Source of the DNA: Nemertoderma westbladi
Lineage: Eukaryota; Animalia; Xenacoelomorpha
Direction of reading: 5' to 3'
DNA length: 35,102 nucleotides
Assembly: GCA_032718475.1 (NCBI GenBank)
Contig: JAUCBJ010003963.1
Coordinates: 1-35,102 of the forward strand
Shown: in pieces, positions 9,329-29,607 of the stretch
How positions within the stretch are numbered: the first letter of the stretch is position 1
How the letters are laid out: each line of letters starts with the position of its first letter
Position numbers and translations under genes: made by a program
Notes under the pieces: generated by a model
Seen by the model: the letters and a program-made list of their open reading frames with translations, nothing else
What the model was told of the DNA's origin: nothing
The model's database searches: none

Positions 9329-9940
9329 TCAGTTAGGTTTCTTGTATGTCACCATTGTGTCAACCTTGTGTATTTGAGTGCTGAAACTTTTGAGCTTGAC
9401 GTCTTCTCCATTAATAACGAGACAAGGACCGGATTCCGTGAAAGTGTCGGGTTCTTGTAGATCCTTCGCGGCGTACATTAGTATATCGAACGTACAAGGA
9501 ACATTGAGTGTGGGAAGGAAGGTAACACAAGCTACTATCTGTCGTATGACGTCACGGACTCCACTCTGTACTTTCTTGGCGTCGTATTCAACGGAAGATG
9601 AATCGTCTACTGATTCATCGCATTGCAGCTCGAATTGCCAACGTTCTAGAATATCTGAGGACGCTGTGTCCTTGACGACCATAACAACTCGCCGTAACGA
9701 CTTCAACATCAGCCACTCTTTGATGTGGTCCAGGACCAATGTCAGATACTCGTTGACTTTATCGTCCGCCATTACCAGCATAAGTAGACCGTGGTAATAG
9801 TCGCGTTTAAACATATCGGCTGGGTAAACACCCCGCTGGTATAGAATGCTGTTTATACCGAAACCAAGAAATTCGGTAACCATTTGACAGGAACCCTTTA
9901 GAGTGATGGTTTGCTTCGTCGCGGCAGTAGTAGAAGACAT
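9329..9940 (-). CDS. MAD2L1: Mitotic spindle assembly checkpoint protein MAD2 (HORMA domain), CDS without introns, nested antisense in the WBP2 intron
   Basis: 203 aa with ITLKGS, FGINSILYQRGVYP, LERWQF, VIRQIVACVTFLP, ESGP and VKLKSFSTQIHKVDTMVTYK, colinear with human MAD2 over its full length. No stops or frameshifts. Confidence 0.97.
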   Translation of the reverse strand: MSSTTAATKQTITLKGSCQMVTEFLGFGINSILYQRGVYPADMFKRDYYHGLLMLVMADDKVNEYLTLVLDHIKEWLMLKSLRRVVMVVKDTASSDILERWQFELQCDESVDDSSSVEYDAKKVQSGVRDVIRQIVACVTFLPTLNVPCTFDILMYAAKDLQEPDTFTESGPCLVINGEDVKLKSFSTQIHKVDTMVTYKKPN

Positions 9941-10766: not shown

Positions 10767-11539
10767 CCTTACAGTAGCTCCTTACAGTAGCTCCTTACAG
10801 TAGCTCCTTACAGTAGCTCCTTACAGTAGCTCCTTACAGTAGCTCCTTACAGTAGCTCCTTACAGTAGCTCCTTACAGTAGCTCCTTACAGTAGCTCCTT
10901 ACAGTAGCTCCTTACAGTAGCTCCTTACAGTAGCTCCTTACAGTAGCTCCTTACAGTAGCTCCTTACAGTAGCTCCTTACAGTAGCTCCTTACAGTAGCT
11001 CCTTACAGTAGCTCCTTACAGTAGCTCCTTACAGTAGCTCCTTACAGTAGCTCCTTACAGTAGCTCCTTACAGTAGCTCCTTACAGTAGCTCCTTACAGT
11101 AGCTCCTTTACAGTAGCTCCTTTACAGTAGCTCCTTTACAGTAGCTCCTTACAGTAGCTCCTTATAGTAGCTCCTTACAGTAGCTCCTTACAGTAGCTCC
11201 TTACAGTAGCTCTTTACAGTAGCTCCTTACAGTAGCTCCTTACAGTAGCTCCTTACAGTAGCTCCTTACAGTAGCTCCTTACAGTAGCTCCTTACAGTAG
11301 CTCCTTACAGTAGCTCCTTACAGTAACTCCTTACAGTAGCTCCTTACAGTAGCTCCTTACAGTAGCTCCTTACAGTAGCTCCTTACAGTAGCTCCTTACA
11401 GTAGCTCCTTACAGTAGCTCCTTTACAGTAGCTCCTTACAGTAGCTCCTTTACAGTAGCTCCTTTACAGTAGCTCCTTTACAGTAGCTCCTTACAGTAGC
11501 TCCTTACAGTAGCTCCTTACAGTAGCTCCTTACAGTAGC
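10767..11539. repeat. 13-bp minisatellite (TTACAGTAGCTCC)n, block 1 (~59 units)
   Basis: Directly visible tandem array, with 14-bp TTTACAG variants. Confidence 0.99.
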
Positions 11540-13030
11540 TGTTCGCGGTATTTCAACTTTCCATAACGCGAGTTGAATATTTTTTGTATTGATTTAAAAT
11601 GATTATTCCGATATTACTACTGGGTGCGGGACCATGGGTTTTGGGCACATTCTATAAACTGGGGGCGATTTATGGGCGAACTTTGGGGCGACTTACAGGG
11701 TACGGGACTAATTTCATGTTTATAAGGGCCAGGGGGGGATGGAAAATTCAAGCAGTATTCAGGTTAGCCTGATTACTATTAGGCCCTGGCCAACTTCCTG
11801 CTGCCTGTAGAGGTGGTTTTGGTAACGCGCCAGGCCTAAAGGACAAGGACTGCCCTTAGCGGTCCCTGGCCAACAGCAGTTATTACGAGACTGAAAAGAA
11901 CTCGGAACGCTGACTGCTTGTGTCAGGGATTTGCGACGGGAAACGACACGACAGACCCCTAGCCAAGCCGTACTGGTTCTCGATGATCGTTCCCTTCGGG
12001 GTTCGTGAGGGGTGGGACGGACACGCGAAAGGGTCTACCGACTTACGGAGGAAGGGTTTGACGAGGACTGCCCTTAGCGGTCTCTGGTCAACAGCAGTTA
12101 TTACGAGACTGAAAAGAACTCGGAACGCTGACTGCTTGTAACAGGGATTTGCGACGGGACCGACGACAGACCCCTTAGCCAAGCCGTACTGGTTCTCGAT
12201 GATCGTTCCCTTCGGGGTTCGTGAGGGGTGGGACGGACACGCGACGGGGTCGAAAGACAAAGGACTAGACTCTACTGGCCTACCGACTGTTCGGAGCAGT
12301 TTCTCGGTTGCCGAAGCGACTACGAGCCTGAAAGGGACTCGGAAAGCCTAGGTGGTTGGGTTTCTGCGATGAACCGACGGACCCCTAGCCAAGCCGTACT
12401 GGTTCTCGATGATCGAACCCTTCGGGGTTCGTGAGGGGTGGGACGGACACGCGAACGGGTCCACCGACACGACAGACTCCTAGCCAAGCCGTACTGGTTC
12501 TCGATGACCGATCCCTTCGGGGTTCGAGAGGGGTGGTACGGATACGCGACAGAGTCTACCGACTGGACCGACCCTTAGCCAAGCCGTGCTGGTTCTCGAT
12601 GATCGTTCCCTTCGGGGTTCGGGAGGGGTGGAACGGACACGCGACAGGGTCGACCGACACCGACACTGCGGCATCAAGACTAGGACCGAGGGAAAATCTG
12701 GGGAACATTAGTTAGGCTAAAATCTGAGCGAACAGTGGGTAATTAAATAATATACTGTAGGGATTTATATTGTCGTGTATAATTATTGTGAATATTTGGT
12801 GTATATTGATTTGGGGAAGCCCAAAATTATTCTCAATCAGGTTCAACAGAGTTCAGTTACATTAAAGAGTATATCCAACTAATGCAGCTTTTTCTCAACC
12901 GCAACCTGCATCTCAGAAATCATTCCTTCTCCACAATCAATATCCGGTGACTGGCCGGGGCTCGGTGGTCTGTAAAGTCACGTCTCCAGCATCGGCGTTT
13001 TTCCCCCCTGGTGTTGGGATAACGGCAACA
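11540..13030 (+). repeat. 5' LTR (1491 bp)
   Basis: TGTTCGCGGT...ACGGCAACA, matching 23727-24742. TATA-like TATAAG at 11721, TCAGTT at 12853, ATTAAA at 12861. Confidence 0.95.
11759..12727 (+). ncRNA. Predicted multibranch structured RNA in the LTR: five k-turn/UUCG hairpins and three loop-E/GAAA hairpins inside a long-range closing helix
   Basis: Covarying basal stems AGACCC/GGGTCT, GACCCC/GGGGTC, GGACCC/GGGTCC, AGACTC/GAGTCT and CGACCCT/AGGGTCG. Closing helix TTAGCCTGATTA (11764-11775) pairs with TAGTTAGGCTAA (12709-12720). Folded by eye only. Confidence 0.6.
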
Positions 13031-13032
13031 AA

Positions 13033-13045
13033 ATTGAGAATAATT
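13033..13045 (+). promoter_or_regulatory. Non-tRNA primer-binding-site candidate, complementary to the element's own LTR
   Basis: ATTGAGAATAATT starts 2 nt after the LTR-terminal CA. It is the exact reverse complement of AATTATTCTCAAT at 12825-12837 and 24537-24549. No TGG lies next to the LTR. Confidence 0.6.
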
Positions 13046-13320
13046 AATGTGGTCAATTTTGACAGGGTGTCAAAATTGAGAATAATTATGGTCAATTTTG
13101 ACAGGGTGTCAAAATTGAGAGTAAAACGCAGCCAACTTCAACTGGTGGAAGTTGAGAATCCTTCAATACTCTTCAAAACTCTCTACGTGCTTGCCAGCAC
13201 CCACTACGAGGAAACTCTGGTATTTGAGTTAAGACGAAGTCGTGGTTTAATTAATCAACAAACTCGATCTAACCAACTCGTAGTCGGCAGATCACATATT
13301 TGGAGAGTTGTTAACAGGGA

Positions 13321-13512
13321 ATGGAAGTATCGATCACACCCATTGATATAATCCAAGTTGAGCCAGGAATCTGGCACGTCGAAGTTGAAGTACAAGGAAC
13401 GAACGTCGGACGATTCAGGATTACCGTTCGGGTGGTCCAAGCTGAGTACAATACCTACGAGGAACTGTTTTATGACATCGCGTATCTAGCTATCGACAAG
13501 GCGCTACAATGA
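13321..13512 (+). CDS. 63-aa upstream ORF of the BEL element, stop overlapping the gag start (ATGA)
   Basis: Alternating beta-strand pattern (WHVEVEVQG, FRITVRVV) and an amphipathic helix (YEELFYDIAYLAIDKALQ). TGA 13510-13512 overlaps ATG 13509-13511. Confidence 0.5.
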   Translation: MEVSITPIDIIQVEPGIWHVEVEVQGTNVGRFRITVRVVQAEYNTYEELFYDIAYLAIDKALQ

Positions 13513-16120
13513 CGACAAATAACGTATCCGATACCGACGAGATGGATCACCACACAGACTCGGAAGCCGACGAGGTACCAAACGTCAAGAACATGACCCG
13601 TCGGCTAGGGGCTCTCAAAGGCGGAGTAACCCGAGCGTATCAATGGATGGAGAAACAACTCAAGGGAGTCAAAACCCCCCTCAATGAGGTACAAACTCAG
13701 CTTCAAAGTATCCGAAATATCCTACAGCGGTACGAAAGAATGATACAGGCGTACCAAGAGCTCGTTCCCTCCACCGATCAGGAAAACTACCCCAAGTTTG
13801 AAGAACACGTTGTACATCTAGATGGGTTCCGCAAACAACACCGGAGGACCCTCAGCCTTGTGAGAGGCTATGAAGAACAGTACTACAAGAGAGCTGAAAG
13901 AACAGACGCGGAATCAGTACGAACCTCCAGCATCAGGACAGCAGTACATCGAAAGAGAACGGGGTCCGCTAGAAATCAGCACTCCAGCGCTAGGAGCGAG
14001 ATATCCAGCTCAGCGCGCAGTTCTCAAGGGGGGCCGCCACTCCGAGACCAACTGCGAGAACGGAAGGCATTAGCCCTCAAAGCTCGGATGGAAGATGAGT
14101 ATATTCAACTGCAAGCCGAGCAAGATGTATTAGCCGCCGAAACACAAAAGCGAGAGGCCGAACAAGCGGCCGAACGGCAGGCCGAACAACGCGAACAGGA
14201 GGCGGAACAACATAGACGAGAGGCCGAACGGCAGGCTGAACAACGCAAACAGGAGGCGGAACAACATAGACGAGAGGCCGAACGAGAGATCGAACAACGT
14301 AAACAGGAGGCTGAACAACGTGGACGAGAGGCCGAACGAGAGATCGAACAACGTAAATGGGAAGCAGAAATGCGTAAACAACACGCCGAGGCCCAAGCGA
14401 TTCTCATCCACAAAAAGAATGCGGATATTGCAAAACTCGCGGAATACGAAGCCGCACTTATAGAACGAGATATTCAACTCTACGAGGACTGGGAAAGGGA
14501 TATAGATCAGGAATATGAACCAATCCCGGTACCGGAATTAGAAAAGTCATTTATACTGACAGCGGCGAAACTTCCGAAACCCGAGATCCCGCCTACCAAA
14601 CAGTCTACGTTATCGGCACAAGCACCGGTGTTCCATCCCCCACCGGCTACGCTAAAGAATGAGGAACCTTATATCCCAGCCACCTCTACGGTCACGAGTG
14701 TACCCAAGTACGAGCCTGAAAGGGACTCGGAACGGGACGCCACTCCCCGATCCAACAACCCATTTACATCCACACCACAAACCCGTAGTCGCGTCATCAT
14801 TAAAACTCCACCTATCATTGATCCATCGAGTATGGGAGTGAGTGCCAATAACTATAACCCTCCGAGTCACTCCAGTTCAGACGACGTCAGTATTATCCGG
14901 GTGTTGGAAAACCGCCTTGCCATGCCTAAGATGGAGATCCGCACCTTCGAAGGAGATCCCGTCGATTACCTCAGATTCAAGAAACGGTTCTTTGCGCAGA
15001 TTGGATCAACGGACATAGCCGACGCACAGAAATTGGTATATTTATCGCAATACCTGGGTGACAAACCACGCAGAATTATTGCATGTTTTGAGGGAGGTTC
15101 TCATGAGGCATACTATGACGCATGGAAAACTCTAGATAAAAGATACGGAAATACCGGAACTATAATTAATAAAACTCTAGAGAGACTGATACAGGACGCG
15201 GGATCACTAGGGGACCCACAGAACATCCAGGAATTCTCCGACTCTATGAAGGATGCCTACTATACTCTGAAACCCTTAAATAAGGAGGACCAGGTGAACA
15301 ACATTCTAAACCTCCGACAGATCGCCCGGAAGTTCCCCGGATGGCTACAAAGTAAGTGGGCTTATAAATGCGTAGATCTCCGGCGCAGACATCCAGATCG
15401 AGATCCTAGCTTCCTTGAAATGTCGGCATTCCTGGACGATATCTCCGAAGCCATGAATGACTCGATGTTTTCAAAACAGAGTCTTGCCAAGTTGGACGGA
15501 ATAGAGAGCAACTCCAGGAGTAAGATAACCCCTCCGAAACCGAGATTCCGCCCTCCACCGGTGAGTACGATGGCCATCACCATGGCCGAGGATTCCGACG
15601 ACGAAGACTACGAGGAACCGACATCCGCCGAGGAATGGGCATGTTATCTCGCGAATTGGGCACCCGAAAGGGAAGGCATCACAAATTCCCTGCTCTGTCT
15701 CTTCTGTGGAGAGAAACATAAAGTGGAATTCTGCAGGAAGTTTCAGTTCGCCGAACTCGTCCCACGCTTCGAGGCGGTAATGAAACACCGAGGATGCTTC
15801 CGGTGTCTTGGAACAGGTCACTATGTTCTGGATTGCGACCAAAGATCATGCTGTGCCGTCTGTAACGACCAACGTCATCACACGCTCCTCCACATCCCCG
15901 CGAACTTCGATTTCACTACCCTCCCCTTTCGGATCGAAGCCAAGCGAAGAGGAGAAACAAACCACATTTTCAAAGGAACCCGGACAACCCAACGGAGAGA
16001 AACCAACCCGTTTAAAATCTCCACCGATACACCACAAGTAACAAATATTTCGGCCACGATTAATCTTATAAATCGCTGCTACATGGTCTTCGCAAAGGTA
16101 ATCCCAGTAAGGATTCAAGG
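13509..16120 (+). CDS. gag: BEL/Pao Gag (coiled coil, capsid-like DUF1759-type region, three zinc knuckles); frame shifts into protease near 16120
   Basis: MPKMEIRTFEGDPVDY...QKLVYLSQYL...AWKTLDKRYG; knuckles CLFCGEKHKVEFC, CFRCLGTGHYVLDC and CAVCNDQRHHTLLH; EAERQAEQRKQEAEQHRR repeats at ~14150-14390. Confidence 0.9.
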
Positions 16121-16920
16121 AGTCAGCAAATCCTTGACGCGTTCGCGTTCCTTGATAACGGGTCCGACGGAACCATCATCGACCGGGATTTCCTCGAGCA
16201 ACTCGGCCTAGAATATGAACCTTGTAAACGGCCCATACAAACCATCACCGATAACAGAGAGGTAGAGTCCGGGGAGGTGCAACTCCAGATGGAAGGAGTG
16301 ATGAAGGGCTACGAAACGGTTAAGTTAACCATCAAGAACGCCTTGGTACACACAGACCTCCGAGTGCGGTTCCGACAATCAGCCGAGTATGCCCCCCTCA
16401 TACAATTGGACCGAGACGATGTAGATCTGAGGTGTCCGCAGTTGGACGTAAACCGCATCACCCTACTGATCGGACTTGATACACCGGAACTACACATCCC
16501 CACCGGAGATATCGCCCGATCCATAAAACAGGACGACGGATTTTATGCTGAACGAACAATAATGGGATGGACACTCTGCGGCATTAAGGAAGAAACTACT
16601 GACACCTATACCTACCTTCCCAAATGTCAGATTAAAGAGAATGCAACCTCCGTGGGTTATTGCTCAGCTACGGACATTGACGAGGATTTGTTTCTAGAGA
16701 CTGAGAAAACCCAACAAGAGATGACGAAATATTTTAATCTAGAGACCCAGGAGTTCGCTGAAAAGGACGAAAACCCGTCCGAAGAGGATCAATATTGTAT
16801 GGACGTTCTCGACCAGGCCACGTTCAAAGACGGACACTGGTGTTCACCTATGTTATGGAAGGACCCAAACAAACCAATGGCAAACAACGCCAGCATGGCA
16901 CTTAGGCGACTTAGGGGATT
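16121..16920 (+). pseudogene. Aspartic protease and linker segment of gag-pol, bounded by two frameshifts
   Basis: The shifted frame reads ILDAFAFLDNGSDGTII...LLIGLDTPELH...RTIMGWTLCG...PMLWK...ALRRL. A further shift near 16920 continues LRRLNDQPEIKEKYNTVIQGYL. Confidence 0.85.
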
Positions 16921-19806
16921 CTACGCCGGCTGAATGACCAACCCGAGATAAAGGAGAAATATAATACCGTAATCCAAGGATATCTCGACGATGGATTAGC
17001 AGAAATGGTACCACGGAATGAACTGCAAGGTGGTAAAAGAACATATTATCTCCCAACCCACTATGTGGTAGAAGCCCGGAAGGGTGGGAAAATCCGAGTG
17101 GTAAATGATGCCGCCGCTACGTACCAGGGCGAATCCCTAAACAGTCAGCTTTACACGGGACCCAACATATATAGTACACTCATCGGCGTACTGATCAGGT
17201 TCAGGGAAAACCGGGTAGCATTCACCTGCGACATCAAGACCATGTTTCATCAAGTTCGTACGCTACCAAGAGACTCAGACTGTCTACGTATCCTATGGAC
17301 GGATAAAACACTAACTCAACAGGAGATTAGTCAACTTACGATAAAGGACGTAGACATAATGCGTATGGTTGTCAGGATCTTCGGCGCTAAGGACTCGCCG
17401 GTAGCATGCAGTGACATGCTGAAGAGGACGGCAACTATGTGCGAAAACGAGTTCCCTCCAACCGTCATAGAAACCATCCGACGATGCTTTTACGTGGATG
17501 ATGGATGCGCCGGCGCAGATAATGTGGACGAGGCATACCGGCTAGCAATGGGGATGGTAGAATGTCTAAAGAAAGGAGGTTTTCCGCTCGTGAAGTTCAG
17601 ATCCCACGACAAAACCCTTATGGAAAAGTTTCCGGAGGACATCCGACTGGAAAATAACAAAATGTATTCGGAGGATGTGGAACATCGTGTACTCGGGATT
17701 GAATGGGACATAGAATCAGACGAATTCATCTTCAAATATAAACCCCTACCCAAGCCTATGACAAAAAGGGGATGTTTGTCAATAAAAAGCGCCATCTTCG
17801 ACCCACTAAATTTCATATCTCCAGTAACCTTGGCCGGAATGAACCTGATTAAGGAAATGTGGATAGAAGGACTGGGATGGGACGAAGAGCTCCCCCCACA
17901 CCTCAGCGTCAAATGGAGAAAATGGACGGAGCAGCTCGAACACCTACATCTTATGCGGATACCTAGACCGTTCTTCCTCGATAAACTACCCACCGATATC
18001 TTCCAGCTCCATACCTTCTCGGATGCTTCGAATACCGGAATTGGCGTAGTCACCTTCTTACGAAGACTCAGCAACGATGGAAACGGTGATACGAGCTTCT
18101 TATTTTCTAAAGCCAAGACAGTATCCGGGGAATTCGTAGCAACGATTCCAAGACTCGAGCTACAGGCTGCAGTTTGGGCAGTAAGACAGAATCGCATGGT
18201 CATGCGGAACCTACGGATCCCCATTGAGTCTCAACACTTCTGGGTCGATTCGAGTATAGTTCTCTATTATCTCCACTCTCCATCACGGCGTCACACTACA
18301 TTTGTAGCGAACCGAGCCACAGAGATAAAACAGTGTACCGGCCGAGAACAGTGGCACCATGTAAACGGGAAAGAAAACCCAGCGGACTTATCAAGCCGAG
18401 GCGCCACCCCAAAACAACTCTGTAAAAGTAAACTCTGGCTTACAGGCCCGGAATTCCTACAACAGCCACAATTAACATGGAGTACCCGATTCGACCCCGA
18501 ACTCGATAGCGGAAAATACTCCGAGGACGATAAAGAGATCCGTAAAATCCATAGAAGCAACGCAGTGGAAATTTATAGCTGTCTGACTGAGCCTGCAAAG
18601 GACTCGGGCAGGCACTATAACGTTGCGACGATCATTCAACCAGCGGCGTCTTTACGACAGAACTGGATTATAGCTAATATAAGACAAAGATATTGGATCA
18701 CCCACATCCAGCCACTGATCCGGAAAGTGTTGAAACGTTGCTTTACCTGCAGACGTTATCTAGCGCCACCAATCACCCAAAAGATGGCCGACTTACCAGC
18801 CACCCGTCTACAAGCAGATTCCCCACCGTTCTACGTCACTGGAATGGACTGTTTCGGCCCGTTTACGGTCATCGAACGACGATCCAACATCAAATGCTGG
18901 GGAGCCATCTTCACCTGCCTAAGGTCTAGGGCAATCTACCTAGACATTGTGGTGAACCTTACGCAACACGCATTCATCAATGCTCTGCGTCGGTTCGTGG
19001 CAAGCAATGGGACATGTCGTCACATGTATTCCGATAATGGCACGAACTTTGTGGGAGGAGAAAGAGAACTTGGAGAGGCGATCGAGGGATGGTTTACCGA
19101 TAACACCGCATCCCAAGTCTGGAAGGAACACCAGATACAGTGGCACTTCCAGACCCCCTTAGCACCCCATACGAGCGGGGTATGGGAGAAACTGATCGAC
19201 CTAGTGAAACGGTCAATGCGCGTCGCTCTAGGAGACACCCGGGTAACCCATGACACCCTCCGCACAACATTCTGCGAGATCACAGCTACCCTGAACAACC
19301 GGCCCATTGTCCCTATCCGCGACGACCCCACAGACCTGGAGCCCCTCACTCCTAACCACCTACTGGGGAGACCTAAAACTCAAGTTCTCCCGGAGACAAT
19401 GTTTCCGGATCCCAACGATATTGCGAGACATACAAACTGGAAAAAGGCCCAAGCGTTGGCAGCACATTGGTGGATAATCTGGGCCCAGGAGTACCTCATA
19501 ACCCTCCGGACCAGGAGGAAATGGAACAACACCTACCGGAACGTCGCAGTTGGCGACATGGTACTAGTAAAAGAAGATCTCAAAGATCGCGTTCACTGGC
19601 CTGTGGCGCGGGTCGTGACCATACACCCAAGCAAAGACGGACTTGCGAGGACTGTGACGATACGAACGGCTTCGGGCCACTACCAACGCCCTATCCAGAG
19701 GCTGTGCCTTCTTGAAGGCAATGATAGCGGTGACTCTACGAGAGGTGATAAGTTCCCTACTCAAGATCCTGCTGCAGACATCGGTGACAATGATAAATGC
19801 GTTTAA
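16921..19806 (+). CDS. pol: BEL/Pao Pol: RT, RNase H and integrase, with an in-frame deletion before the integrase zinc-binding region
   Basis: RT: YYLPTH, KIRVVNDA, CDIKTMFHQV, FGAKDSP, YVDD. RNase H: FSDAS, IPRLEL, WVDS, NPADLSSRG. Integrase: GMDCFGP, SDNGTNF, WEKLI. The usual GRL/HP/His-pair segment is absent near 18600-18660. Confidence 0.93.
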   Translation, partial: LRRLNDQPEIKEKYNTVIQGYLDDGLAEMVPRNELQGGKRTYYLPTHYVVEARKGGKIRVVNDAAATYQGESLNSQLYTGPNIYSTLIGVLIRFRENRVAFTCDIKTMFHQVRTLPRDSDCLRILWTDKTLTQQEISQLTIKDVDIMRMVVRIFGAKDSPVACSDMLKRTATMCENEFPPTVIETIRRCFYVDDGCAGADNVDEAYRLAMGMVECLKKGGFPLVKFRSHDKTLMEKFPEDIRLENNKMYSEDVEHRVLGIEWDIESDEFIFKYKPLPKPMTKRGCLSIKSAIFDPLNFISPVTLAGMNLIKEMWIEGLGWDEELPPHLSVKWRKWTEQLEHLHLMRIPRPFFLDKLPTDIFQLHTFSDASNTGIGVVTFLRRLSNDGNGDTSFLFSKAKTVSGEFVATIPRLELQAAVWAVRQNRMVMRNLRIPIESQHFWVDSSIVLYYLHSPSRRHTTFVANRATEIKQCTGREQWHHVNGKENPADLSSRGATPKQLCKSKLWLTGPEFLQQPQLTWSTRFDPELDSGKYSEDDKEIRKIHRSNAVEIYSCLTEPAKDSGRHYNVATIIQPAASLRQNWIIANIRQRYWITHIQPLIRKVLKRCFTCRRYLAPPITQKMADLPATRLQADSPPFYVTGMDCFGPFTVIERRSNIKCWGAIFTCLRSRAIYLDIVVNLTQHAFINALRRFVASNGTCRHMYSDNGTNFVGGERELGEAIEGWFTDNTASQVWKEHQIQWHFQTPLAPHTSGVWEKLIDLVKRSMRVALGDTRVTHDTLRTTFCEITATLNNRPIVPIRDDPTDLEPLTPNHLLGRPKTQVLPETMFPDPNDIARHTNWKKAQALAAHWWIIWAQEYLITLRTRRKWNNTYRNVAVGDMVLVKEDLKDRVHWPVARVVTIHPSKDGLARTVTIRTASGHYQRPIQRLCLLEGNDSGDSTRGDKFPTQDPAADIGDNDKCV

Positions 19807-20100
19807 ACCCTTCTCATCATGTTGACAAACTCTTTTAAACTGTGATTTATCGACAATGAAAATGGACCCCCCTTAAACCAACTGTAACCACGCAATGGTA
19901 TTTGTGTTTCCTCGTGTGTTATGTGGAGTCCAGCGTCACCCTGCAGATGTTTTGACTGACGTAGGGTCGTTTATGTATTGTTTACCCTGATTTTGGTCAT
20001 CGGGACCAACGACTTTGGATTATTGGAAATGGTAAAGATTTGAAGTGGAATTCATTGTATTCATCGCAGTATGTTATGTTGTCCGTTGCGTGCGCAGTTC

Positions 20101-20500
20101 GGGGCGTAGGCGGTGTAACTAGTCCAGCTGTAGATCCCGGATTGCCGCGCAACACCCCCTCTATCCCGTTATTCTGGTGGGTCCATGGTGCATCCACATG
20201 ACTTCGACGATAGAGGGTTTTATGTTTCTCAGTCGCGTTATTCTGGTGGGACCGTTGCGTGGATTTTGGGGCGTAGGCGGTGTAACGAGTCCAGCTGTAG
20301 ATCCCAGAATGTTGCGTAACCCCATCCCACATGACTTCGTCGACTGAGCTTTATGTTGTTGGGAGTGTTATTCTGGTGGGTCCTTGGTGCATCCACGTGA
20401 CTTCACTTCCAGCGTCTTCATTGTCCGTTACGTGCGCAGTTTGGGGCGTAGGCGGTGTAACTAGCCCAGCTGTAGATCCCAGATTGCCGCGTAACACCCC
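20101..20500 (+). repeat. Interleaved direct repeats between pol and ORF3 (three copies each of two motifs), probably RNA stem-loops
   Basis: GGGGCGTAGGCGGTGTAAC...CAGCTGTAGATCCC...CCCC at 20101, 20268 and 20443. GTTATTCTGGTGGG...CCACRTGAC at 20168, 20237 and 20367. Confidence 0.8.
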
Positions 20501-21041
20501 TTCCACGACAAAGATTTCCCAAAGAAGATGATTGAATGTAGTTGGAAATGATGAAAAGGATCAGACAACTCTACTATAAACTGAATGATGACGCGTATGA
20601 TGATGAAAATGTAATGATGCGCACCCTGGTGCTGCGCTTATAACAAATGATGATAGCCGGGGGGCTATAACCCCAATGATGATGTGGAAATAAATGAAAA
20701 TTGAGAATAAATGGTGGAACTAAATGATGAAATATATGTGGAAATAAATGAAATGTGATGAAATAATAAAGAGAAATGAAAAAAGACAAAAAAAGGTATA
20801 AAAAAGTCTGAAGAAAAGAATTGGAAAAAAGAAAGGACATAAAAAGTCATAAAAACTGGTTGGATATTAATGTATAGTTATAGTAACTGTAAATGCTGAA
20901 TGTATTAGCAATAAGATGATAGATGCCTATATAGCAATGTTATTTAATAAACTGAACTGAATTATTCTGCAATCACTATAGTTTCAGACTTTCTGGACTT
21001 ATAATTAACTGATCTAATTTGTAACGGATATAATCGTAAAT

Positions 21042-22334
21042 ATGGACCCAAATCGCCAAATTATCGGCGAATTACGTAACACGATAGATCTACTGGAATA
21101 TTCGCAACCCGGATCTCCTGACTTTGATACAAATTGGAGCACCCTGCTAAATGAGAACGTGCGAGTCGTTAAATTCACCAGGCGAGAGGGACCGGATTCC
21201 AAGAATCTACGAGCCCTCTGGTTAGCCGATGCTAGTACGAGACTGAAAAGAACTCGGAACGCAAAGGCAACCGGAGGGGACGATTCGTCGTTTTGGGAAA
21301 CGTTCCGGCAAAGCATCTACAGATCCCGATGTTTGATCTACGACAACGAGGGAAACGCGACGCCCACCTCGAAAGCGATTACGTTGGCGAGATGTCAAAG
21401 TTTCGTCGACGACAAGAGTACGTACCTCGCCCACTGGGGAAACCTGTCGGAGTGTACGGCGACGCTTCGAGAGGAACGTATATCGACCATCCAAAGTCGC
21501 GACGACTACCAAGAAAAGTACGGGGCGAAAGAATACGGTCGATCCTTGGTCGTCGTCCTCGGAACACTGGACGGTTTGGTATTGGTGTGTCGAATATTTC
21601 CGACGCCCAGACAGGAAGTGCAGGCAGCCGGAGCGATCTGGTTGCTACGTCCGGAAATCCAAAAGATCCTCTTCGACTTCGACGTCATTAAAATCGGGTC
21701 GGATATAAAGGCGGACGTCCGGAACGACTACGCGAACGCTCCCTCAGGAAGAAACCGACGGGACGACCTCAACGCCCTTAGCCATTGCGTCGACACTCAA
21801 ACGCTATTAGCCTGGTTACGATTCGCCGAGTTCATGCGAGGATTCCGGGAGGTAAGACCGACGAAATCCGGGATCGGCTACCTTGCCGTGCTAAACGGCG
21901 GCATCGACTTCAAACCCCAGAAATTCCGGGACTATAATAAAATATATGGTGGATACCCGGGATTAGAAATAAAGAGCGAGCAAGAGGGTCGATGGAAGGA
22001 CGTTGATCGGAAGTGGACGATACACCAAAGGTGGGAGAACCCCGATCGACGGAACTACGTTTACGTCGTTATGGAGTGCTACACCGTCGCTAAGTTTATC
22101 TGTAAAACTCTCGATAACCTTATTACGGCGGTTCCTCTTTCCTTCGTTGACTACGACTGGAATGAGGTCATAAACCACGCATTCAAAGCGGTCGAGAACA
22201 TCACACCGGGAGAGACTAAAATGCTCGCCGTTATCGATTCCTGGGACGAGAGCGGACCTTACGACATCCCCACGATTACCGATCTTCTCGGTGCGGAGGA
22301 GCCTCTGATCTCTTCGGAAGGGGAAGAAATATAG
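21042..22334 (+). CDS. Accessory ORF3 of the BEL element: DnaQ-like DEDDy 3'-5' exonuclease (WRN-exo/EXD/MUT-7/RNase D-like)
   Basis: ExoI CLIYDNEG (D101, E103); SLVVVLGTLDGLVLVCRI; LRPEIQKILFDFDVIKIGSDIKAD (ExoII D225, compare WRN [23 protein letters not shown]); VDTQTL; ExoIII WENP...YVVMECY (Y341, with E345 in place of D). Confidence 0.7.
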   Translation: MDPNRQIIGELRNTIDLLEYSQPGSPDFDTNWSTLLNENVRVVKFTRREGPDSKNLRALWLADASTRLKRTRNAKATGGDDSSFWETFRQSIYRSRCLIYDNEGNATPTSKAITLARCQSFVDDKSTYLAHWGNLSECTATLREERISTIQSRDDYQEKYGAKEYGRSLVVVLGTLDGLVLVCRIFPTPRQEVQAAGAIWLLRPEIQKILFDFDVIKIGSDIKADVRNDYANAPSGRNRRDDLNALSHCVDTQTLLAWLRFAEFMRGFREVRPTKSGIGYLAVLNGGIDFKPQKFRDYNKIYGGYPGLEIKSEQEGRWKDVDRKWTIHQRWENPDRRNYVYVVMECYTVAKFICKTLDNLITAVPLSFVDYDWNEVINHAFKAVENITPGETKMLAVIDSWDESGPYDIPTITDLLGAEEPLISSEGEEI

Positions 22335-22471
22335 CTAAACGAGGGCGTTCTTCTCTCCACCCCGAAGCGACAACTCGAGCCGGAGGCTGCTTACCAACCG
22401 GCCGCCAAACGGGTTGCCTCCACCGAACCAACTATGGAAGCGGGCGTTTCCTCACCACTCGGCTTCGGTAG

Positions 22472-23554
22472 CCCTGCGAGGGAGTTGGTTACTACCTTCG
22501 CGTTAAACGACTTCGGCGATACGTGCCAAAGGTTATCCCCGTATCCTTTCCCGGGTGGCGAAGACTGGTCGTCGGAGATTCCGAGTACCAGGAATCAACG
22601 GACCCGCTCAGCGATATTGGTCGAGAAGGGCCCCAGCGCTGCGCCGACTCCCGACGATCTCCTCGGAATCCCTCCGTCGAAAACCCCTCCGTCATCCACC
22701 GCCAGAAACGGTCGTCCGAGTTGAGGCCGACGGGACACAAAGAAGGTTATCGGAGCGAAGAACTACTACGCCAAAGCCCAGCCTTCCGCGGGCTACCGAC
22801 CACCGCGAATATCCAGAAGAGCGACCGACGACTCGAGTATCACGTCGGCGTCCCGATTCCGATATTTCCCGGTCGAGAGATGCAGTTGGAGGTGTGCGGC
22901 GACTGTGGTTCGGAGCAGTGCCCACGCGGTAGAAGGAATCGGGTTACCGATTCATGCCTCCAGCTCCTCGGGATACTCTATTGCCCATACTGCGCGACAT
23001 CGGGCCACGACGTTTCCGTCTGTCCGATCCTATATAACCTCTGCACCACGTGCGGTTTCCGCGGGCATTCCTCTAGCCCCCGCTGCTATATCAAATGTCC
23101 TACCAAAGACGTTACCACTATGGGAAATATGGTCATGTTTGAAACATACGCAAACAGCCACATAAAGACCAAGGTTCGGAGAAACGCTCGGAATATCGCG
23201 CAGGAGATGGCGTGCAGGTACTTCTCCTTCCCGGAACACCTCCACACGTCGGCCACGTTGCCTTTCCATTACGTGGATTTGTTGCTGAGCGCTGGATTAT
23301 TCGGCCCATTCGAAGTCATTAGACGCTTATACTCGTATAAAGAGGAGTTCGGCGACGGAGAGTGGTTCCTCGAGGCTCGCAACTCCGAGTTGGAACGACG
23401 AACCGATATGCTACCGATGCCATCGAAAGGAAGAGCCGCCAGGAGACAAGCCGAAGCGTTGCTCACGATGGATGTTGACGCTCCTCTACCAGCTATTGCG
23501 ATCGACGAGAGCCGACGGGCGAAGAGGCGAAAGGCGTATCAGAGAAAGAAATAG
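22472..23554 (+). CDS. Accessory ORF4: CCHC zinc-knuckle protein with Arg/Lys-rich C-terminus; start uncertain, possibly the broken C-terminal half of ORF3
   Basis: CPYCATSGHDVSVC (Cx2Cx4Hx4C, 22982-23023), CTTCGFRGHSSSPRC (23042-23086), CGDCGSEQC, and terminal RRAKRRKAYQRKK. The frame is open from 22472 with no ATG for over 130 codons. Confidence 0.7.
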   Translation, partial: PCEGVGYYLRVKRLRRYVPKVIPVSFPGWRRLVVGDSEYQESTDPLSDIGREGPQRCADSRRSPRNPSVENPSVIHRQKRSSELRPTGHKEGYRSEELLRQSPAFRGLPTTANIQKSDRRLEYHVGVPIPIFPGREMQLEVCGDCGSEQCPRGRRNRVTDSCLQLLGILYCPYCATSGHDVSVCPILYNLCTTCGFRGHSSSPRCYIKCPTKDVTTMGNMVMFETYANSHIKTKVRRNARNIAQEMACRYFSFPEHLHTSATLPFHYVDLLLSAGLFGPFEVIRRLYSYKEEFGDGEWFLEARNSELERRTDMLPMPSKGRAARRQAEALLTMDVDAPLPAIAIDESRRAKRRKAYQRKK

Positions 23555-23717
23555 TGGATCGGGATATTCCAGGAACATTTATCGAACATTTATTTTTATA
23601 CATATATATAAACTCTAGGCCAAATTAATTAAAACTATGCAATATTAAATTTGGGTTTTTTATATTGGGAATGACCTACGCAAACTCAATCTACTGACAG
23701 ACTTCACGAAGGTCATT

Positions 23718-23724
23718 GGGGGGG
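23718..23724 (+). promoter_or_regulatory. Polypurine tract (G7)
   Basis: GGGGGGG-AC immediately precedes the 3' LTR TG. Confidence 0.8.
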
Positions 23725-23726
23725 AC

Positions 23727-24742
23727 TGTTCGCGGTATTTCAACTTTCCATAACGCGAGTTGAATATTTTTTGTATTGATTTAAAATGATTATTCCGATA
23801 TTACTACTGGGTGCGGGACCATGGGTTTTGGGCACATTCTATAAACTGGGGGCGATTTATGGGCGAACTTTTTCGAACTAATTTCATGTTTATAAGGGCC
23901 AGGGGGGATGGAAAATTCAAGCAGTATTCAGGTTAGCCTGATTACTATTAGGCCCTGGCCAACTTCCTGCTGTCTGTAGAGGTGGATTTGGTAACGCGCC
24001 AGGCCTAAAGGACAAGGACTGCCCTTAGCGGTCCCTGGCCAACAGCAGTTATTACGAGACTGAAAAGAACTCGGAACGCTGACTGCTTGTGTCAGGGATT
24101 TGCGACGGGAAACGACACGACAGACCCCTAGCCAAGCCGTACTGGTTCTCGATGATCGTTCCCTTCGGGGTTCGTGAGGGGTGGGACGGACACGCGAAAG
24201 GGTCTACCGACTTCCGAAGGAAGGGTTTGACGAGGACTGCCCTTAGCGGTCTCTGGTCAACAGCAGTTATTACGAGACTGAAAAGAACTCTGAACGCTGA
24301 CTGCTTGTACCAGGGATTTGCGACGGGACCGACGACAGACCCCTTAGCCAAGCCGTACTGGTTCTCGATGATCGTTCCCTTCGGGGTTCGTGAGGGGTGG
24401 GACGGACACGCGACGGGGTCGAAAGATAAAGGACTAGACTCTACTGGCCTACCGACTGTTCGGAGCAGTTTCTCGGTTGCCGAAGCGACTACGAGCCTGA
24501 AAGGGACTCGGAAAGGTTTGATTTGGGGAAGCCCAAAATTATTCTCAATCAGGTTCAACAGAGTTCAGTTACATTAAAGAGTATATCCAACTAATGCAGC
24601 TTTTTCTCAACCGCAACCTGCATCTCAGAAATCATTCCTTCTCCACAATCAATATCCGGTGACTGGCCGGGGCTCGGTGGTCTGTAAAGTCACGTCTCCA
24701 GCATCGGCGTTTTTCCCCCCTGGTGTTGGGATAACGGCAACA
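23727..24742 (+). repeat. 3' LTR (1016 bp), lacking ~460 bp present in the 5' LTR
   Basis: Matches the 5' LTR except for about 7 substitutions counted by eye, a short indel near 23870, and absence of the 5'-LTR segment ~12347-12806. Confidence 0.95.
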
Positions 24743-25286
24743 GTAGCTCCTTACAGTAGCTCCTTACAGTAGCTCCTTACAGTAGCTCCTTACAGTAGCT
24801 CCTTACAGTAGCTCCTTACAGTAGCTCCTTACAGTAGCTCCTTTACAGTAGCTCCTTACAGTAGCTCCTTACAGTAGCTCCTTACAGTAGCTCCTTACAG
24901 TAGCTCCTTACAGTAGCTCCTTACAGTAGCTCCTTACAGTAGCTCCTTACAGTAGCTCCTTACAGTAGCTCCTTACAGTAGCTCCTTACAGTAGCTCCTT
25001 TACAGTAGTTCCTTACAGTAGCTCCTTACAGTAGCTCCTTACAGTAGCTCCTTACAGTAGCTCCTTGCAGTAGCTCCTTACAGTAGCTCCTTACAGTAGC
25101 TCCTTACAGTAGCTCCTTACAGTAGCTCCTTACAGTAGCTCCTTACAGTAGCTCCTTACAGTAGCTCCTTTACAGTAGCTCCTTACAGTAGCTCTTTACA
25201 GTAGCTCCTTACAGTAGCTCCTTACAGTAGCTCCTTACAGTAGCTCCTTTACAGTAGCTCCTTACAGTAGCTCCTTTACAGTAGCT
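24743..25286. repeat. 13-bp minisatellite, block 2 (~41 units)
   Basis: Same TTACAGTAGCTCC unit as block 1. Confidence 0.99.
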
Positions 25287-25445: not shown

Positions 25446-28400
25446 TTACATGGCCAATGTTGGGAGACCGGCCCCGTCCTCAAATCCCAGACCGCTACGC
25501 CACCTCGTGCGAGATCCGCGCAGGCAGTGGGACGTACCGCGGACAATGGCGAACTGCACTCGCGTGCGGACCCATCCCATAACGGTGGTGTAGGGTTTAC
25601 CCCAGGCGCTGTGGAGTTTGGTGGCGATAATGCGGAGCAGCATGTTCGCCTGCGGTGCCAACACTCCGTCGCACGAAGCCACGAAAGGTGAGAAGTCGCC
25701 GCGACGAGCTGCTACAGCAGCCGCGTACAACCGCTTCTTCTCATCTTCCGCAGCCTCGAGAATGGTCATAGGAGCACGTTTAGCGTAAGACTCGGCGTCA
25801 AGGTTGGTTGACCTGATATCGATCAACGCCTGAGTCTGTGCGTTAAACGCGCCCCTAATCCCTACATCGCACCGCAGCCCTGCCCCATCACCGTCCTCCA
25901 TCTGCTCCCTCACCACCGGCTCCAACATGACATTGCGCGGCCCCAACGCCAATGCTGCAAGGTCACCCACGGTGTCGCGCAACTCATTGTGGCGCTGGAT
26001 GACGAGGCCGCCCTTCTTACAATTCAAACCATGGTTCAAATCAAAGGCGGCCCCACATCCGTCGCACCGACTGGGAACGCCGAGGAGGGGTTTCCCGTAC
26101 CGAACTGCCACCGCATCGCGGAATTCTCGTGGGGAAAGGTCGTACTGGAGGTCAGCCCGGGGGAGAGAAGAGATCCAGCTGCCGGTTTTATACTCCGCCG
26201 CACGGCGGATTGTGCGGCAGCGGTGTTCGGTCAATGCCCCCATGGCCTCCTCGAACTTGGAAATCTCAGCCAGCTTCCTGGTCTCACCATCCTCCTTCCT
26301 CGCCCTCACTAAACATTCCCGATGAGCTGAGAGATCAAACTCTTCTGTTCCAGCCATCGCACCACAGAGAAATCGGGTCCCTCGGGTTGAGACGAGGTAC
26401 GACGGGTTGGCCTCGGTTACCGGGTTTCGCAGACCCATACCTCCGCGTTGTGGGGACAAACTGAAGAGTTTGCGCTCGTCCGGCGTGATGGACCCTCCGA
26501 GCACGGCGGGGAGAAACCGTTCGGCGATGGCTGTTTCAAGGACGGTGAATTCCTCTTCGCAGTCAGCGGTGACCCTCTGTATGTAGGCCCACTCGCGCTG
26601 CAGCGAGCAAACCATGGCGGAGAAGGCCGCCTGCGGCTGGGAATCTGCCATGGTTGCCAACACGTCAGTCGCATCTACCCATGCCGCTACCTTCGCCCGG
26701 ACAAATTGGCGCCGCTCTCCCGAACTCCCGAGGAACCCACCGAGAAATCGGTGTCCTGTGACCACTTTTACGGGGTGGTCATGGAACACTCTGCGGGCCT
26801 CGTCTTCATGTTCCGGGGCTACCACCAGGTAGCACTTCGACGGCTCGGGATTGTAGCCATAGGATGGTCCAATGTTGAGCAGCCTCTCGAACCACCGCAG
26901 TAGGTCGGCGAGTTCACCCGCCCCGGCCGAGTCGTCGGCGTACCAGCTCTCGCGAACCGATGGGGACCGAAGGTGGCGGATCAACGGGAGGGCTCCGGTG
27001 GCGTACATGAGCATTGCCAGTGGGTCGCCCTGAGTTACGCCCTCCGCACTGAATATGATGGTATCTGTCCCCTTCATCACAAGGATGCTGTGACCACGGT
27101 AGCTATTATAGAGGAATGTGGAGCAACATGGCCACAGGCAACGAGCGTTCCACAATGCGGCCACCCGGTTGAGTGAGTTGAACGCATTCGCCGCATCCAC
27201 CAATAGCACGCCCCAACCCGAGTCGGCGTTGTCCTCGAAGAGTGACGACATCGAGTGTATCGCCGCCTCAACTCCGGCTGAGGTCCCCGCGGACAGCTGT
27301 TCGGCGCCACACGTGATGGTGACGTCGTCCCCTGTGATCACAGCCATTGTGCGGGCCATTATCCGGCGGAGACACTCCCCGATTCCGATAGGCCGCACAC
27401 CCGGACACTTATCCAGCGCTATAAGTCGGCCAGACATCAGCGCACGGACCGACTCCCATGGGACGACAACATTCGCTAGTGTGCGGGTGAATGCAGCCAC
27501 AGTGTCACGAAGTCGCTCGCTGTGGGCGCCGTAGCGGAGCAGGTAATCCCGCCAGCGCGTTGAGTCGCTGCCTGCGGGCCCACTCCCACCGTGGAGCCGC
27601 CGAGCGACATCCTCAATGTGTGCCGCAGTCACGTCGACGTCGACTTTGAGTGGCAGCTCGCTACAATGGATGGTTGAGTCCGAGTTGGGAAGAGCCGCCG
27701 CAGGGTGTTTGTCCTGTAGTACATCGAGGACCTTGACCCTACGCTGACCAACCTCGATGTCCGCTTCTGGTTCCAGAACTCCTCCTGAATCTCGTCCCGT
27801 CACCCAACGGACCGCGCTCCTAACCTTGCCCTCTAGCATGAGCCTCGTGAACACTCGGACTGTGTGGCCGACATCCTTATCTGAGGGCTGAGTTCCACTG
27901 CGCCTCCCTGAAGAACGCAGAGAGGAGCCACGCTCAGCCTCCTGTAACAGAGCGTCTATCTCACCGGAGCGCCACATCACCACCCTGCGGCTGATAAGGC
28001 GGCGAATATCGGCTGCCTTCACGATATTCGGATCTCGGTGCGTGATCAGTGCATCAGCCATCATCAGTCGTTCGGAACGAGCCAAGACGTCCCCCCGACT
28101 GAGTCCCACCACCAAGCTCCGGACCTCGGTGTCGAGGAGGGACACGACATCCCTTCCAACAGAACCACCTGGAAGTCTATATCGGGATCCCTGCAGCTGG
28201 GTGACTCTGCGCCACTGGTGTAGTAGGTGGTCGGGAGGAGCCCCTCTGCCGCTAAGTGGCGCACCAAAAGCTCTTTCCATAAGACCTTCAGGGTCTACAC
28301 TCTGAGGGGGAGCTGAAGCACCAGGTAGCCAGAACTGATCGAAAGTGTCCATAGGGTTGACCCTGCTTCTGTTTGGAAGGAGTGTGGAGCCGACTCCTGA

Positions 28401-29066
28401 CTTTGGAATGGTGGCGTTCGTAGGCGGCGTCTTTTGAAGGGTGGCATTCGAGGGAGGAGTCTGTTGATCGGTGGCGTTTGTGGGCGGCGTCTTTTGAAGA
28501 GTGGCGTTTTTGGGCGGCGTCTTTTGAACGGTGGCATTCGAGGGTGACGTCTTTTGAACGGAGGCGTTCGTGGACGGCGTCTGTTGAATGGTGGTGTTCA
28601 TGGGTGGCGTCTGTTGAATGGTGGCGTTTGTGGGCAGCGTTAGTTGAACAGTGGCGTTCGTGGGTGACGTCTTTTGAACGGTGGTGTTCGTGCGCAGTGT
28701 CTGTTGAACGGCGGCGTTCGCGGGCGGCGTCAGTTGAACGGTGGCGTTCGTGGGAGTAGTCTGTTGAACGGTGGCGTTCGTTCGGGACCCGTCTGTTAGC
28801 GTAACGTCCAGATCCTCCAACGTATCGTCGTTGAGGCTGCCGGAGGGAGAACCTGGGTAAACCGGCTGGGATAGAGACGTTGGAGATAGTGGCTTTACCT
28901 TGTCACTATCAGGCCGCGGCTGTGAAGAAAAAGAAGAAGATCTCCTGCCGTTTTCACAGTTCCCACTCTTTCCGGGGGCGCAATTTCGGCAACCCACTCC
29001 GCTCTTAGCACAAGAGCATGTCTTGCAGCGACCGGTCTTCCCATTGCAGACACAACAGGGCGCCAT
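25446..29066 (-). CDS. 1206-aa RT-RLE polyprotein
   Basis: N-terminal Cys cluster (CCVC..CKTCSC..CRNC..C). RT: GVRPIGIGECLRR, VDAANAFNSLNR, GVTQGDPL, WYADD. C-terminal CDGC...H...C finger, RHNELRD, RCD...IDI, AEDEKKRLY and FSPFVASCDG endonuclease motifs. Confidence 0.93.
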   Translation of the reverse strand: MAPCCVCNGKTGRCKTCSCAKSGVGCRNCAPGKSGNCENGRRSSSFSSQPRPDSDKVKPLSPTSLSQPVYPGSPSGSLNDDTLEDLDVTLTDGSRTNATVQQTTPTNATVQLTPPANAAVQQTLRTNTTVQKTSPTNATVQLTLPTNATIQQTPPMNTTIQQTPSTNASVQKTSPSNATVQKTPPKNATLQKTPPTNATDQQTPPSNATLQKTPPTNATIPKSGVGSTLLPNRSRVNPMDTFDQFWLPGASAPPQSVDPEGLMERAFGAPLSGRGAPPDHLLHQWRRVTQLQGSRYRLPGGSVGRDVVSLLDTEVRSLVVGLSRGDVLARSERLMMADALITHRDPNIVKAADIRRLISRRVVMWRSGEIDALLQEAERGSSLRSSGRRSGTQPSDKDVGHTVRVFTRLMLEGKVRSAVRWVTGRDSGGVLEPEADIEVGQRRVKVLDVLQDKHPAAALPNSDSTIHCSELPLKVDVDVTAAHIEDVARRLHGGSGPAGSDSTRWRDYLLRYGAHSERLRDTVAAFTRTLANVVVPWESVRALMSGRLIALDKCPGVRPIGIGECLRRIMARTMAVITGDDVTITCGAEQLSAGTSAGVEAAIHSMSSLFEDNADSGWGVLLVDAANAFNSLNRVAALWNARCLWPCCSTFLYNSYRGHSILVMKGTDTIIFSAEGVTQGDPLAMLMYATGALPLIRHLRSPSVRESWYADDSAGAGELADLLRWFERLLNIGPSYGYNPEPSKCYLVVAPEHEDEARRVFHDHPVKVVTGHRFLGGFLGSSGERRQFVRAKVAAWVDATDVLATMADSQPQAAFSAMVCSLQREWAYIQRVTADCEEEFTVLETAIAERFLPAVLGGSITPDERKLFSLSPQRGGMGLRNPVTEANPSYLVSTRGTRFLCGAMAGTEEFDLSAHRECLVRARKEDGETRKLAEISKFEEAMGALTEHRCRTIRRAAEYKTGSWISSLPRADLQYDLSPREFRDAVAVRYGKPLLGVPSRCDGCGAAFDLNHGLNCKKGGLVIQRHNELRDTVGDLAALALGPRNVMLEPVVREQMEDGDGAGLRCDVGIRGAFNAQTQALIDIRSTNLDAESYAKRAPMTILEAAEDEKKRLYAAAVAARRGDFSPFVASCDGVLAPQANMLLRIIATKLHSAWGKPYTTVMGWVRTRVQFAIVRGTSHCLRGSRTRWRSGLGFEDGAGLPTLAM
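28408..28780 (-). repeat. 30-bp coding tandem repeat (QQTPPTNATV-like, ~12-13 copies) in the CRE ORF
   Basis: GTGGCGTTCGTGGGCGGCGTCTKTTGAACG-like units on +. Confidence 0.95.
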
Positions 29067-29271: not shown

Positions 29272-29607
29272 TTTACAGTAGCTCCTTTACAGTAGCTCCT
29301 TACAGTAGCTCCTTTACAGTAGCTCCTTACAGTAGCTCCTTTACAGTAGCTCCTTACAGTAGCTCCTTTACAGTAGCTCCTTACAGTTGCTCCTTTACAG
29401 TAGCTCCTTACAGTAGCTCCTTTACAGTAGCTCCTTACAGTAGCTCCTTTACAGTAGCTCCTTACAGTAGCTCCTTTACAGTAGCTCCTTACAGTAGCTC
29501 CTTACAGTAGCTCCTTTACAGTAGCTCCTTTACATTAGCTCCTTATAGTAGCTCTTTACAGTAGCTCCTTACAGTAGCTCCTTACAGTAGCCCCTTACAG
29601 TAGCTCC
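29272..29607. repeat. 13/14-bp minisatellite, block 3 (~25 units; alternating TT/TTT variants)
   Basis: Same unit; a regular 13+14 alternation over part of the block gives a 27-bp higher-order repeat. Confidence 0.99.

Follow-up and report, generated by a model that had tools for sequence, protein, structure and literature searches.

The window analysed here is a stretch of 35,102 nucleotides from Nemertoderma westbladi (contig JAUCBJ010003963.1, assembly GCA_032718475.1), in which positions 11540-24742 are occupied by a BEL/Pao long terminal repeat (LTR) retrotransposon. We found that priming of its reverse transcription by the element's own RNA, independently of tRNA, is strongly supported by the complementarity between its primer-binding site (PBS) and its LTR. 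An earlier note on this DNA had assigned the element to BEL/Pao, and the assignment stands: Pfam recognises DUF1759, Asp_protease, Peptidase_A17 and DUF5641, and features of BEL/Pao elements (Belpaoviridae) are present, namely a DUF1759 gag, a Pao-type RNase H (PF05380), DUF5641, the order protease, reverse transcriptase (RT), RNase H and integrase, LTRs of the form TG...CA, a polypurine tract and a target-site duplication. The pol product gave 298 matches to BEL/Pao-type proteins at E 1e-20, with a best identity of 42% (range in animals, 30-42%), and no match in a search of viral contigs. Identical counterparts of six proteins of the window were looked up, and none turned up. The BEL/Pao profile of the ICTV, the international virus taxonomy committee, describes an 18-nt tRNA PBS (tRNA-Arg/Gly), LTRs of 0.2-1.2 kb and elements of 4.2-10 kb (PMC8742986). 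The present element shares with it the gag-pol organisation, the LTR termini, the polypurine tract and a 5-bp target-site duplication, but it has no 18-nt tRNA PBS, its third gene is not env, and both its LTR (1.49 kb) and its total length (13.2 kb) lie above the range. The features are collected in Table 1.

Table 1. Features of the retrotransposon and their positions in the window.
Feature	Position	Strand	Remark
Target-site duplication, left	11535..11539	+	GTAGC, within 13-bp minisatellite
5' LTR	11540..13030	+	1491 nt, TGTT...AACA
TATAAA	11653..11658	+	candidate promoter
Motif B core, three copies, 5' LTR	11887, 12105, 12324 (within 11887..12340)	+
Motif A, five copies, 5' LTR	11944..12659	+	stem-loop of about 85 nt, K-turn-type GA/GA, UUCG cap
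Hairpin adjoining primer 5' end	12810..12825	+	perfect, 6 bp; from sequence and fold
PBS complement, 5' LTR	12825..12837	+	13 nt, predicted self-primer
ATTAAA poly(A) signal, 5' LTR	12861..12866	+	no variant listed in four runs
PBS	13033..13045	+	non-tRNA, 2 nt past LTR end
Two short leader frames	13088..13512	+	87 and 65 aa, putative coding
gag	13509..16211	+	DUF1759 and three Cys-His knuckles
Protease frame	16064..16933	+	broken towards RT in this copy
Motif B in gag	14712..14728	+
RT, RNase H, integrase	16915..19806	+	deletion before 18656 in this copy
Motif B in pol	18589..18605	+	GCAA loop
Motif C, three hairpins	20079-20161, 20246-20328, 20421-20503	+	between pol and ORF3
ORF3	21042..22334	+	RNase D/WRN-like 3'-5' exonuclease candidate (D101, E103, D225, Y341/E345)
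Motif B in ORF3	21239..21255	+	codon phase differs from gag and pol
Zinc-knuckle frame	22472..23554	+	most likely C-terminal part of ORF3 protein
Polypurine tract	23718..23724	+	G7, 2 nt 5' of 3' LTR
3' LTR	23727..24742	+	1016 nt
Motif B, 3' LTR copies	24056, 24274, 24493	+
Motif A, two copies, 3' LTR	24113-24212, 24329-24428	+
PBS complement, 3' LTR	24537..24549	+	13 nt
ATTAAA poly(A) signal, 3' LTR	24573..24578	+	24 nt past 13-mer
Target-site duplication, right	24743..24747	+	GTAGC

The PBS is the exact complement of a 13-nt stretch of the LTR, a length reached by none of 2000 dinucleotide-shuffled LTRs. No TGG follows the LTR, the 18-nt match that defines a tRNA-type PBS is absent, and ARAGORN found no tRNA gene within the window. 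The available text of PMC6317226 defines a self-primer as an LTR complement of at least 10 bp located 0-5 nt past the 5' LTR; with 13 bp at +2, the element fits this definition of Tf1-type self-priming. The earlier note had proposed a non-tRNA PBS complementary to the element's own LTR, with the 13-mer just upstream of an ATTAAA, and both observations hold; the position of the signal is shared by all 13 LTRs compared, those of the element and of 12 related families described below. When folding was predicted for RNAs starting at 12810-12825, the primer paired with the PBS with a probability of 0.93-0.95. Across the family contigs no variant is listed for the PBS, and the primer, with 1/13 variable positions, is no more conserved than the remaining LTR (28/341). 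No enrichment of pairing was seen 3' of the primer (p=0.75). A split (spliced) primer was rejected for this element: the 13-mer is contiguous, and the best spliced alternative has a poor acceptor.

The PBS unit is tandemly duplicated at 13029-13124, with a perfect 12-bp hairpin (z -5.65), and its copy number varies in the family. The second copy of the PBS, at 13075-13087, lies inside this duplication. An upstream open reading frame had also been claimed here; its ATG falls within the duplicated 39-44 nt unit. At least one contig has this unit in a single copy, an indel in it varies among copies, and the frame was not confirmed. The 65-aa leader frame was compared with double-stranded RNA-binding domains without a match.

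We then examined the relatives of the element. They comprise 79 loci (from the best 80 of 535 confirmed), fetched with a profile built from pol together with its eight best homologs, and they cluster into 56 families, of which 22 have no LTR-PBS stretch and stand outside the priming counts. For 12 families the LTR end was set by the two LTR copies, independently of any complement, the end in L012 being ambiguous by a few bases. We observed that the PBS has a complement of 10-15 nt in the LTR of the same family in 12/12 cases when one G-U pair is allowed, and in 11/12 with strict Watson-Crick pairing. Mismatched LTR/PBS pairs reached 10 nt in only 10/156 and 5/156 cases, respectively, mostly among L016, L026, L042 and L058, which have PBS words in common. 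A TGG in the first 6 nt was found in only one of the 12, a family that also has a spliced self-complement.

In 10 of these 12 families the complement forms only after removal of a GT-AG intron within the LTR. In L009, for instance, the primer is split between a donor at 1200 and an acceptor at 1276, with the LTR end at 1390; such an intron-only complement (10-15 nt) also occurs in L002, L012, L016, L022, L026, L042, L058, L060 and L076, and in 14 more loci. The introns of the split-primer relatives measure 66-1321 nt. Eight of the 10 donors fit GTAAGT at 5-6 of 6 positions, compared with 44/666 background GTs; where sites tied, the better donor was taken. The acceptors show 11-13 pyrimidines in 15. 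A further 23 loci, from 22 families, were scanned blind with the LTR end picked by score; 16 gave matches, versus 17/690 for shuffled-PBS runs. Among the seven misses, L041, L043 and L073 scored 11 in other scans and one duplicates the family of L001; L014, L075 and L077 were negative throughout.

The layout of primer, poly(A) signal, U5 and PBS is common to the element and its relatives. Exactly one AWTAAA is present 7-136 nt downstream of the primer in each of the 13 LTRs, with only one in the 5758 nt upstream. A contiguous primer is found in L030, L054, L069 and the window element, which requires four changes on the RT tree (a quick tree of 71 rows). These intronless forms are scattered on the tree: L054 and L069 fall within groups of spliced families. 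The primer of L054, which is contiguous, is very similar to the junction predicted after splicing in its relative L046, the outcome expected of a precise loss of the intron. Judged from these complements, self-priming is a trait of the whole lineage.

The element also contains a third gene, ORF3, followed by a zinc-knuckle frame. A full HMMER scan returned a single homolog of ORF3, P0001 (648 aa); a word-indexed search found none, a two-sequence profile none further, and viral and metagenome contigs none. P0001 matches ORF3 (E 3e-15) and the knuckle frame (E 3e-9) within one chain. The ORF3 stop at 22332-22334 is private to this copy, being absent from all contigs covering it (24, 23, 20 and 1 in four runs), and a putative second junction lies near 22720-22880. 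Because P0001 carries both parts and the stop is private, the two frames most likely represent one protein, an RNase D-like domain with zinc knuckles, broken here. The two separate accessory genes of the earlier note are thus probably one. Candidate splice acceptors are located at 20982-20988, about 55 nt before the ORF3 ATG, and splicing may produce the RNA that expresses ORF3.

The motifs of DEDDy exonucleases are ExoI, DxE; ExoII, a conserved D; and ExoIII, YxxxD. DxE, GxxxxxD and YxxxE are present in both ORF3 and P0001, ExoI having been placed by eye in a stretch that BLAST did not align. The third motif is therefore YxxxE instead of YxxxD, and ORF3 has about 55 extra residues after DxE relative to P0001. 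ORF3 itself had no significant Pfam, PDB or fold match, and P0001 matched PF01612 weakly (E 0.2; 11.9 bits versus a cut-off of 23.6). Two atlas searches gave clusters of PF01612, one at 0.92 with recognition under the threshold and one at 0.86 that combined PF01612 with zf-CCHC; no other named family came from either search. The two AlphaFold models were unusable, with a predicted local distance difference test (pLDDT) score of 33-34, and the fold search based on them was uninformative. For the knuckles of P0001 the match is to retroviral nucleocapsid (E 1e-4). From these motifs and profiles, ORF3 quite probably has an exonuclease fold; nuclease activity is less likely than the fold. The residues D101/E103 singled out earlier lie in a DxE with a counterpart in P0001, and their assignment to an exonuclease gains no support from BLAST alignment or from Pfam, PDB and fold matches.

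Two known systems resemble this protein, as far as the available text of the sources goes. The bdelloid LTR elements Juno and Vesta carry a DEDDy ORF3, an RNase D-like, non-env third ORF of putative activity for which 3'-end RNA processing was proposed (PMC5408684); they differ in not being BEL/Pao elements, in their DEED motif and in that no link with priming is reported in that text, and the exonuclease-like domain of the present element is fused to zinc knuckles. TbRND of Trypanosoma brucei, which trims RNA 3' tails, likewise has CCHC zinc fingers after its RNase D domain (PMC7797062), but it is a cellular enzyme and the likeness is one of resemblance only, the one match being between knuckles, to PDB 7c42 at E 9.4.

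Three families of hairpins accompany these genes. The core of motif B is a 4-bp stem with a bulged A and a GNRA loop, flanked by a UA/GAA loop-E-like loop. It is present in nine copies, all on the sense strand, where 0.04 would be expected for a pattern taken from the copies themselves; its flanking stem varies among copies yet pairs (90% of cells; 1/500 shuffles). A search of viral contigs with motif B gave no match. The kink-turn (K-turn) consensus consists of a C-helix, a 3-nt bulge, tandem G-A/A-G pairs and an NC helix. A K-turn pattern, written after the motif had been seen, has seven matches on the plus strand and none on the minus strand, all in motif A (7/7 copies), and 15 in 585 kb of relatives. 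Motif A folds no better than shuffled sequence in 4/5 copies; motif C folds strongly (z -3.3, -1.8 and -4.4). The earlier note had described arrays of covarying hairpins: repeated, sense-strand-only hairpins are present, but the covariation is modest, with two-sided changes in 2/26 pairs of motif A, 3/25 of motif C and 2/10 of motif B (177/500 shuffles for the last). A search with Rfam covariance models gave a best E of 1.9 and no known RNA or ribozyme, and hammerhead, hairpin, twister and HDV-like (hepatitis delta virus) readings of motifs A-C were dropped on consensus. A fourth repeated hairpin lies between the motif C copies (20165-20212 and 20362-20410), and it shares the sequence TTATTCT with the primer 13-mer. 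Motifs A-C could be protein-binding signals for packaging, export or stability.

The earlier note had joined PBS, hairpins and exonuclease into one system. Their distribution among the self-primed relatives does not bear this out. ORF3 gave no match in the 79 relative loci at E 1, P0001 matching gag knuckles only, and 52-432 nt separate the pol stop from the LTR in 21/21 measured relatives, versus 3921 in this element. Internal repeats, hairpin arrays and the K-turn pattern are absent from 12/12 relative LTRs, and motif B with one mismatch occurs in 2/79 loci. Since relatives with a self-primer lack both, self-priming would need neither the exonuclease nor the arrays, and both the exonuclease-like gene and the arrays were probably acquired later and independently.

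The account that we favour, by a modest balance of probability, is Tf1-like self-priming with cleavage by the RNase H of the RT, ORF3 and the arrays being separate add-ons. Tf1 primes from its own RNA, with RNase H cleavage at the duplex, and Tf1, Tf2, Tj1 and the Tf1/sushi group resemble the present element in having a PBS complementary to their own LTR and no tRNA (PMC5341516, PMC4600332, in the parts available). They differ in belonging to the Ty3/gypsy superfamily; the Tf1 primer is the mRNA 5' end, and the primer of the BEL/Pao relatives is split by an intron. By analogy, the 5' LTR copy of the primer would fold back onto the PBS and the RNase H would cut the RNA at the duplex end, leaving an R region of about 45 nt, from primer end to poly(A) site, for strand transfer. 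The primer would descend from the splice-junction primer of the lineage, the LTR intron having been lost via reverse transcription of spliced RNA. ORF3 and the knuckle frame might form one RNase D-type 3' exonuclease acting on element or silencing RNAs, a weaker part of the proposal. This mechanism has experimental precedent (PMC4600332, PMC5341516) and needs no extra gene.

Several observations weigh against it. In most copies of the family, a transition at 12834 (G-C to G-U) has no matching PBS variant; this is compatible with RNA pairing and is not compensatory, and it would not be expected of a PBS that is copied anew from the primer at each round. The predicted pairing probability is 0.53 for an RNA starting at 12800 and does not exceed 0.06 for starts at 12780, 12750 and 12700, and the only TATAAA sits 1.17 kb upstream. 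Beyond the core, extended pairing shows a weak overall signal (p=0.034), and this element, at rank 12 of 13, has none. In the intron-bearing relatives the mechanism needs the 5' intron to be spliced and the 3' copy retained, though it adjoins the poly(A) signal. The RT of the window element forms a long branch (best identity 43%), which makes its descent from the spliced group, and its place among the named BEL/Pao clades (Sinbad, Suzu, Flow, Dan and others), unsure, and the priming is here a prediction from DNA sequence.

Because a conserved poly(A) signal closely follows each primer, another origin of the primer stays in play, possible though unlikely in our estimation: the primer would come from the 3' end of the RNA or from a short LTR-only transcript with a poly(A) tail, the tail of 30-150 nt being trimmed 3'-5' to the PBS duplex, by host enzymes in the relatives and possibly by ORF3 here. 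An acceptor followed by a poly(A) signal is a terminal-exon architecture, which would explain the retention of the intron in most families; an exonuclease with CCHC knuckles is the design of TbRND, an enzyme that trims guide-RNA 3' tails (PMC7797062, available in part; resemblance only), and this element is both intronless and equipped with a nuclease-like gene. Yet the same poly(A) position is needed by the Tf1-like mechanism, priming in the relatives does without ORF3, also in L030, L054 and L069, which are intronless too, the nuclease activity is a prediction, and no precedent was found in the literature searched. A stronger form, in which ORF3 itself makes the primer, is doubtful: LTR RNA, loaded into particles via the K-turn and loop-E hairpins, would substitute for the tRNA, and the RNase D-zinc-knuckle enzyme would trim its tail to the PBS duplex. 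It is equally doubtful that the lineage, as this form would imply, swapped the splice-gated primer of its relatives for a self-made primer-processing system.

Self-priming could also be true with ORF3 as an inactive, diverged RNA-binding protein, whose knuckles and dead RNase H-like fold recognise the hairpins for packaging or export. The missing Pfam, PDB and fold matches, the below-threshold atlas recognition, YxxxE in place of YxxxD, the extra residues after DxE and the distribution of motif B along the genomic RNA all favour this, but the four acidic positions are all present in ORF3 and P0001, PF01612 is the sole named family of both atlas searches, and P0001 does match it weakly; we regard it as improbable. 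That the complement is a product of chance or a remnant, with priming by a small RNA of the host or a fragment of tRNA, appears very improbable. The tRNA comparison covered the post-LTR TGG and the window, the host tRNA set lying outside it, most copies carry one G-U pair, and BEL/Pao elements are given as tRNA-primed in the ICTV profile (PMC8742986), but the shuffled LTRs never reached 13 nt and the family-specific PBS is matched by its own LTR in all 12 relatives.

The data point to a broad BEL/Pao group whose reverse transcription starts from the element's own RNA, in most cases at a junction of two exons within the LTR; if true, such a splice-junction primer would place reverse transcription under host splicing control. 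The window element would be an intronless end state, with in addition a nuclease-like third gene and structured RNA arrays, neither of which was found for BEL/Pao in the literature searched. In C. elegans, Cer7 and Cer13 are BEL/Pao elements that encode a tRNA-like primer of their own (Cer7) and carry an additional exonuclease domain; unlike in the present element, their primer lies outside the LTR and env is present. If this is true, the novelty of a self-encoded primer and an exonuclease, taken as parts, is lower. BEL/Pao elements are described as tRNA-primed and their replication as poorly understood (PMC8742986). For BEL/Pao, the literature searched yielded no account of self-priming, of a spliced primer, of an exonuclease ORF or of K-turn arrays, subscription papers, Repbase, GyDB and supplements being outside the search. 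In the available portions, the words primer and exonuclease are absent from PMC3118150 and the words PBS and tRNA from PMC554778, and PMC3601003, PMC3985635, PMC6934838, PMC8220671 and PMC6431247 contain nothing on BEL/Pao self-priming or an exonuclease ORF.

The element is a young, defective copy from a high-copy family. Its two LTRs differ by 9 mismatches in 1016 aligned nt, and its defects are the break between protease and RT, the deletion before 18656 in the integrase and the stop at 22332-22334. The high copy number is deduced from family contigs (four runs, three studies) with summed depths in the thousands, depth not being equal to copy number, and hundreds of variants along the element. 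The 3' LTR has no equivalent of 12347-12805; neither this gap nor the breaks in pol are mentioned in the earlier note. A GT-AG intron was rejected on sequence as the origin of this deletion, and among 15 of the 40 joints in family contigs none matches its junction. All 9 mismatches and the indels are central (11685-12346 versus 23872-24515), the first 145 and last 225 nt being identical; conversion or a chimera of two subfamilies is possible. A contig of run X5, labelled organism B, matches LTR positions 12690-13007 with 15 differences in 320 nt, and the family or a near relative may be present in a second species. Targeting of the minisatellite by the element is unsupported, the two other listed insertion flanks being different.

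Next to the element, on the minus strand, an intact 1206-aa ORF of a non-LTR retrotransposon with a weak RVT_1 match occupies 25446-29066, and the same 13/14-bp minisatellite is found on both sides of it (24740-25286 and 29273-29607). We take this ORF to resemble a CRE-type, repeat-targeting element. Also on the minus strand are an intronless MAD2-like HORMA gene (9329-9940) and a DUF7869 ORF (5762-6661), probably a DNA-transposon fragment.

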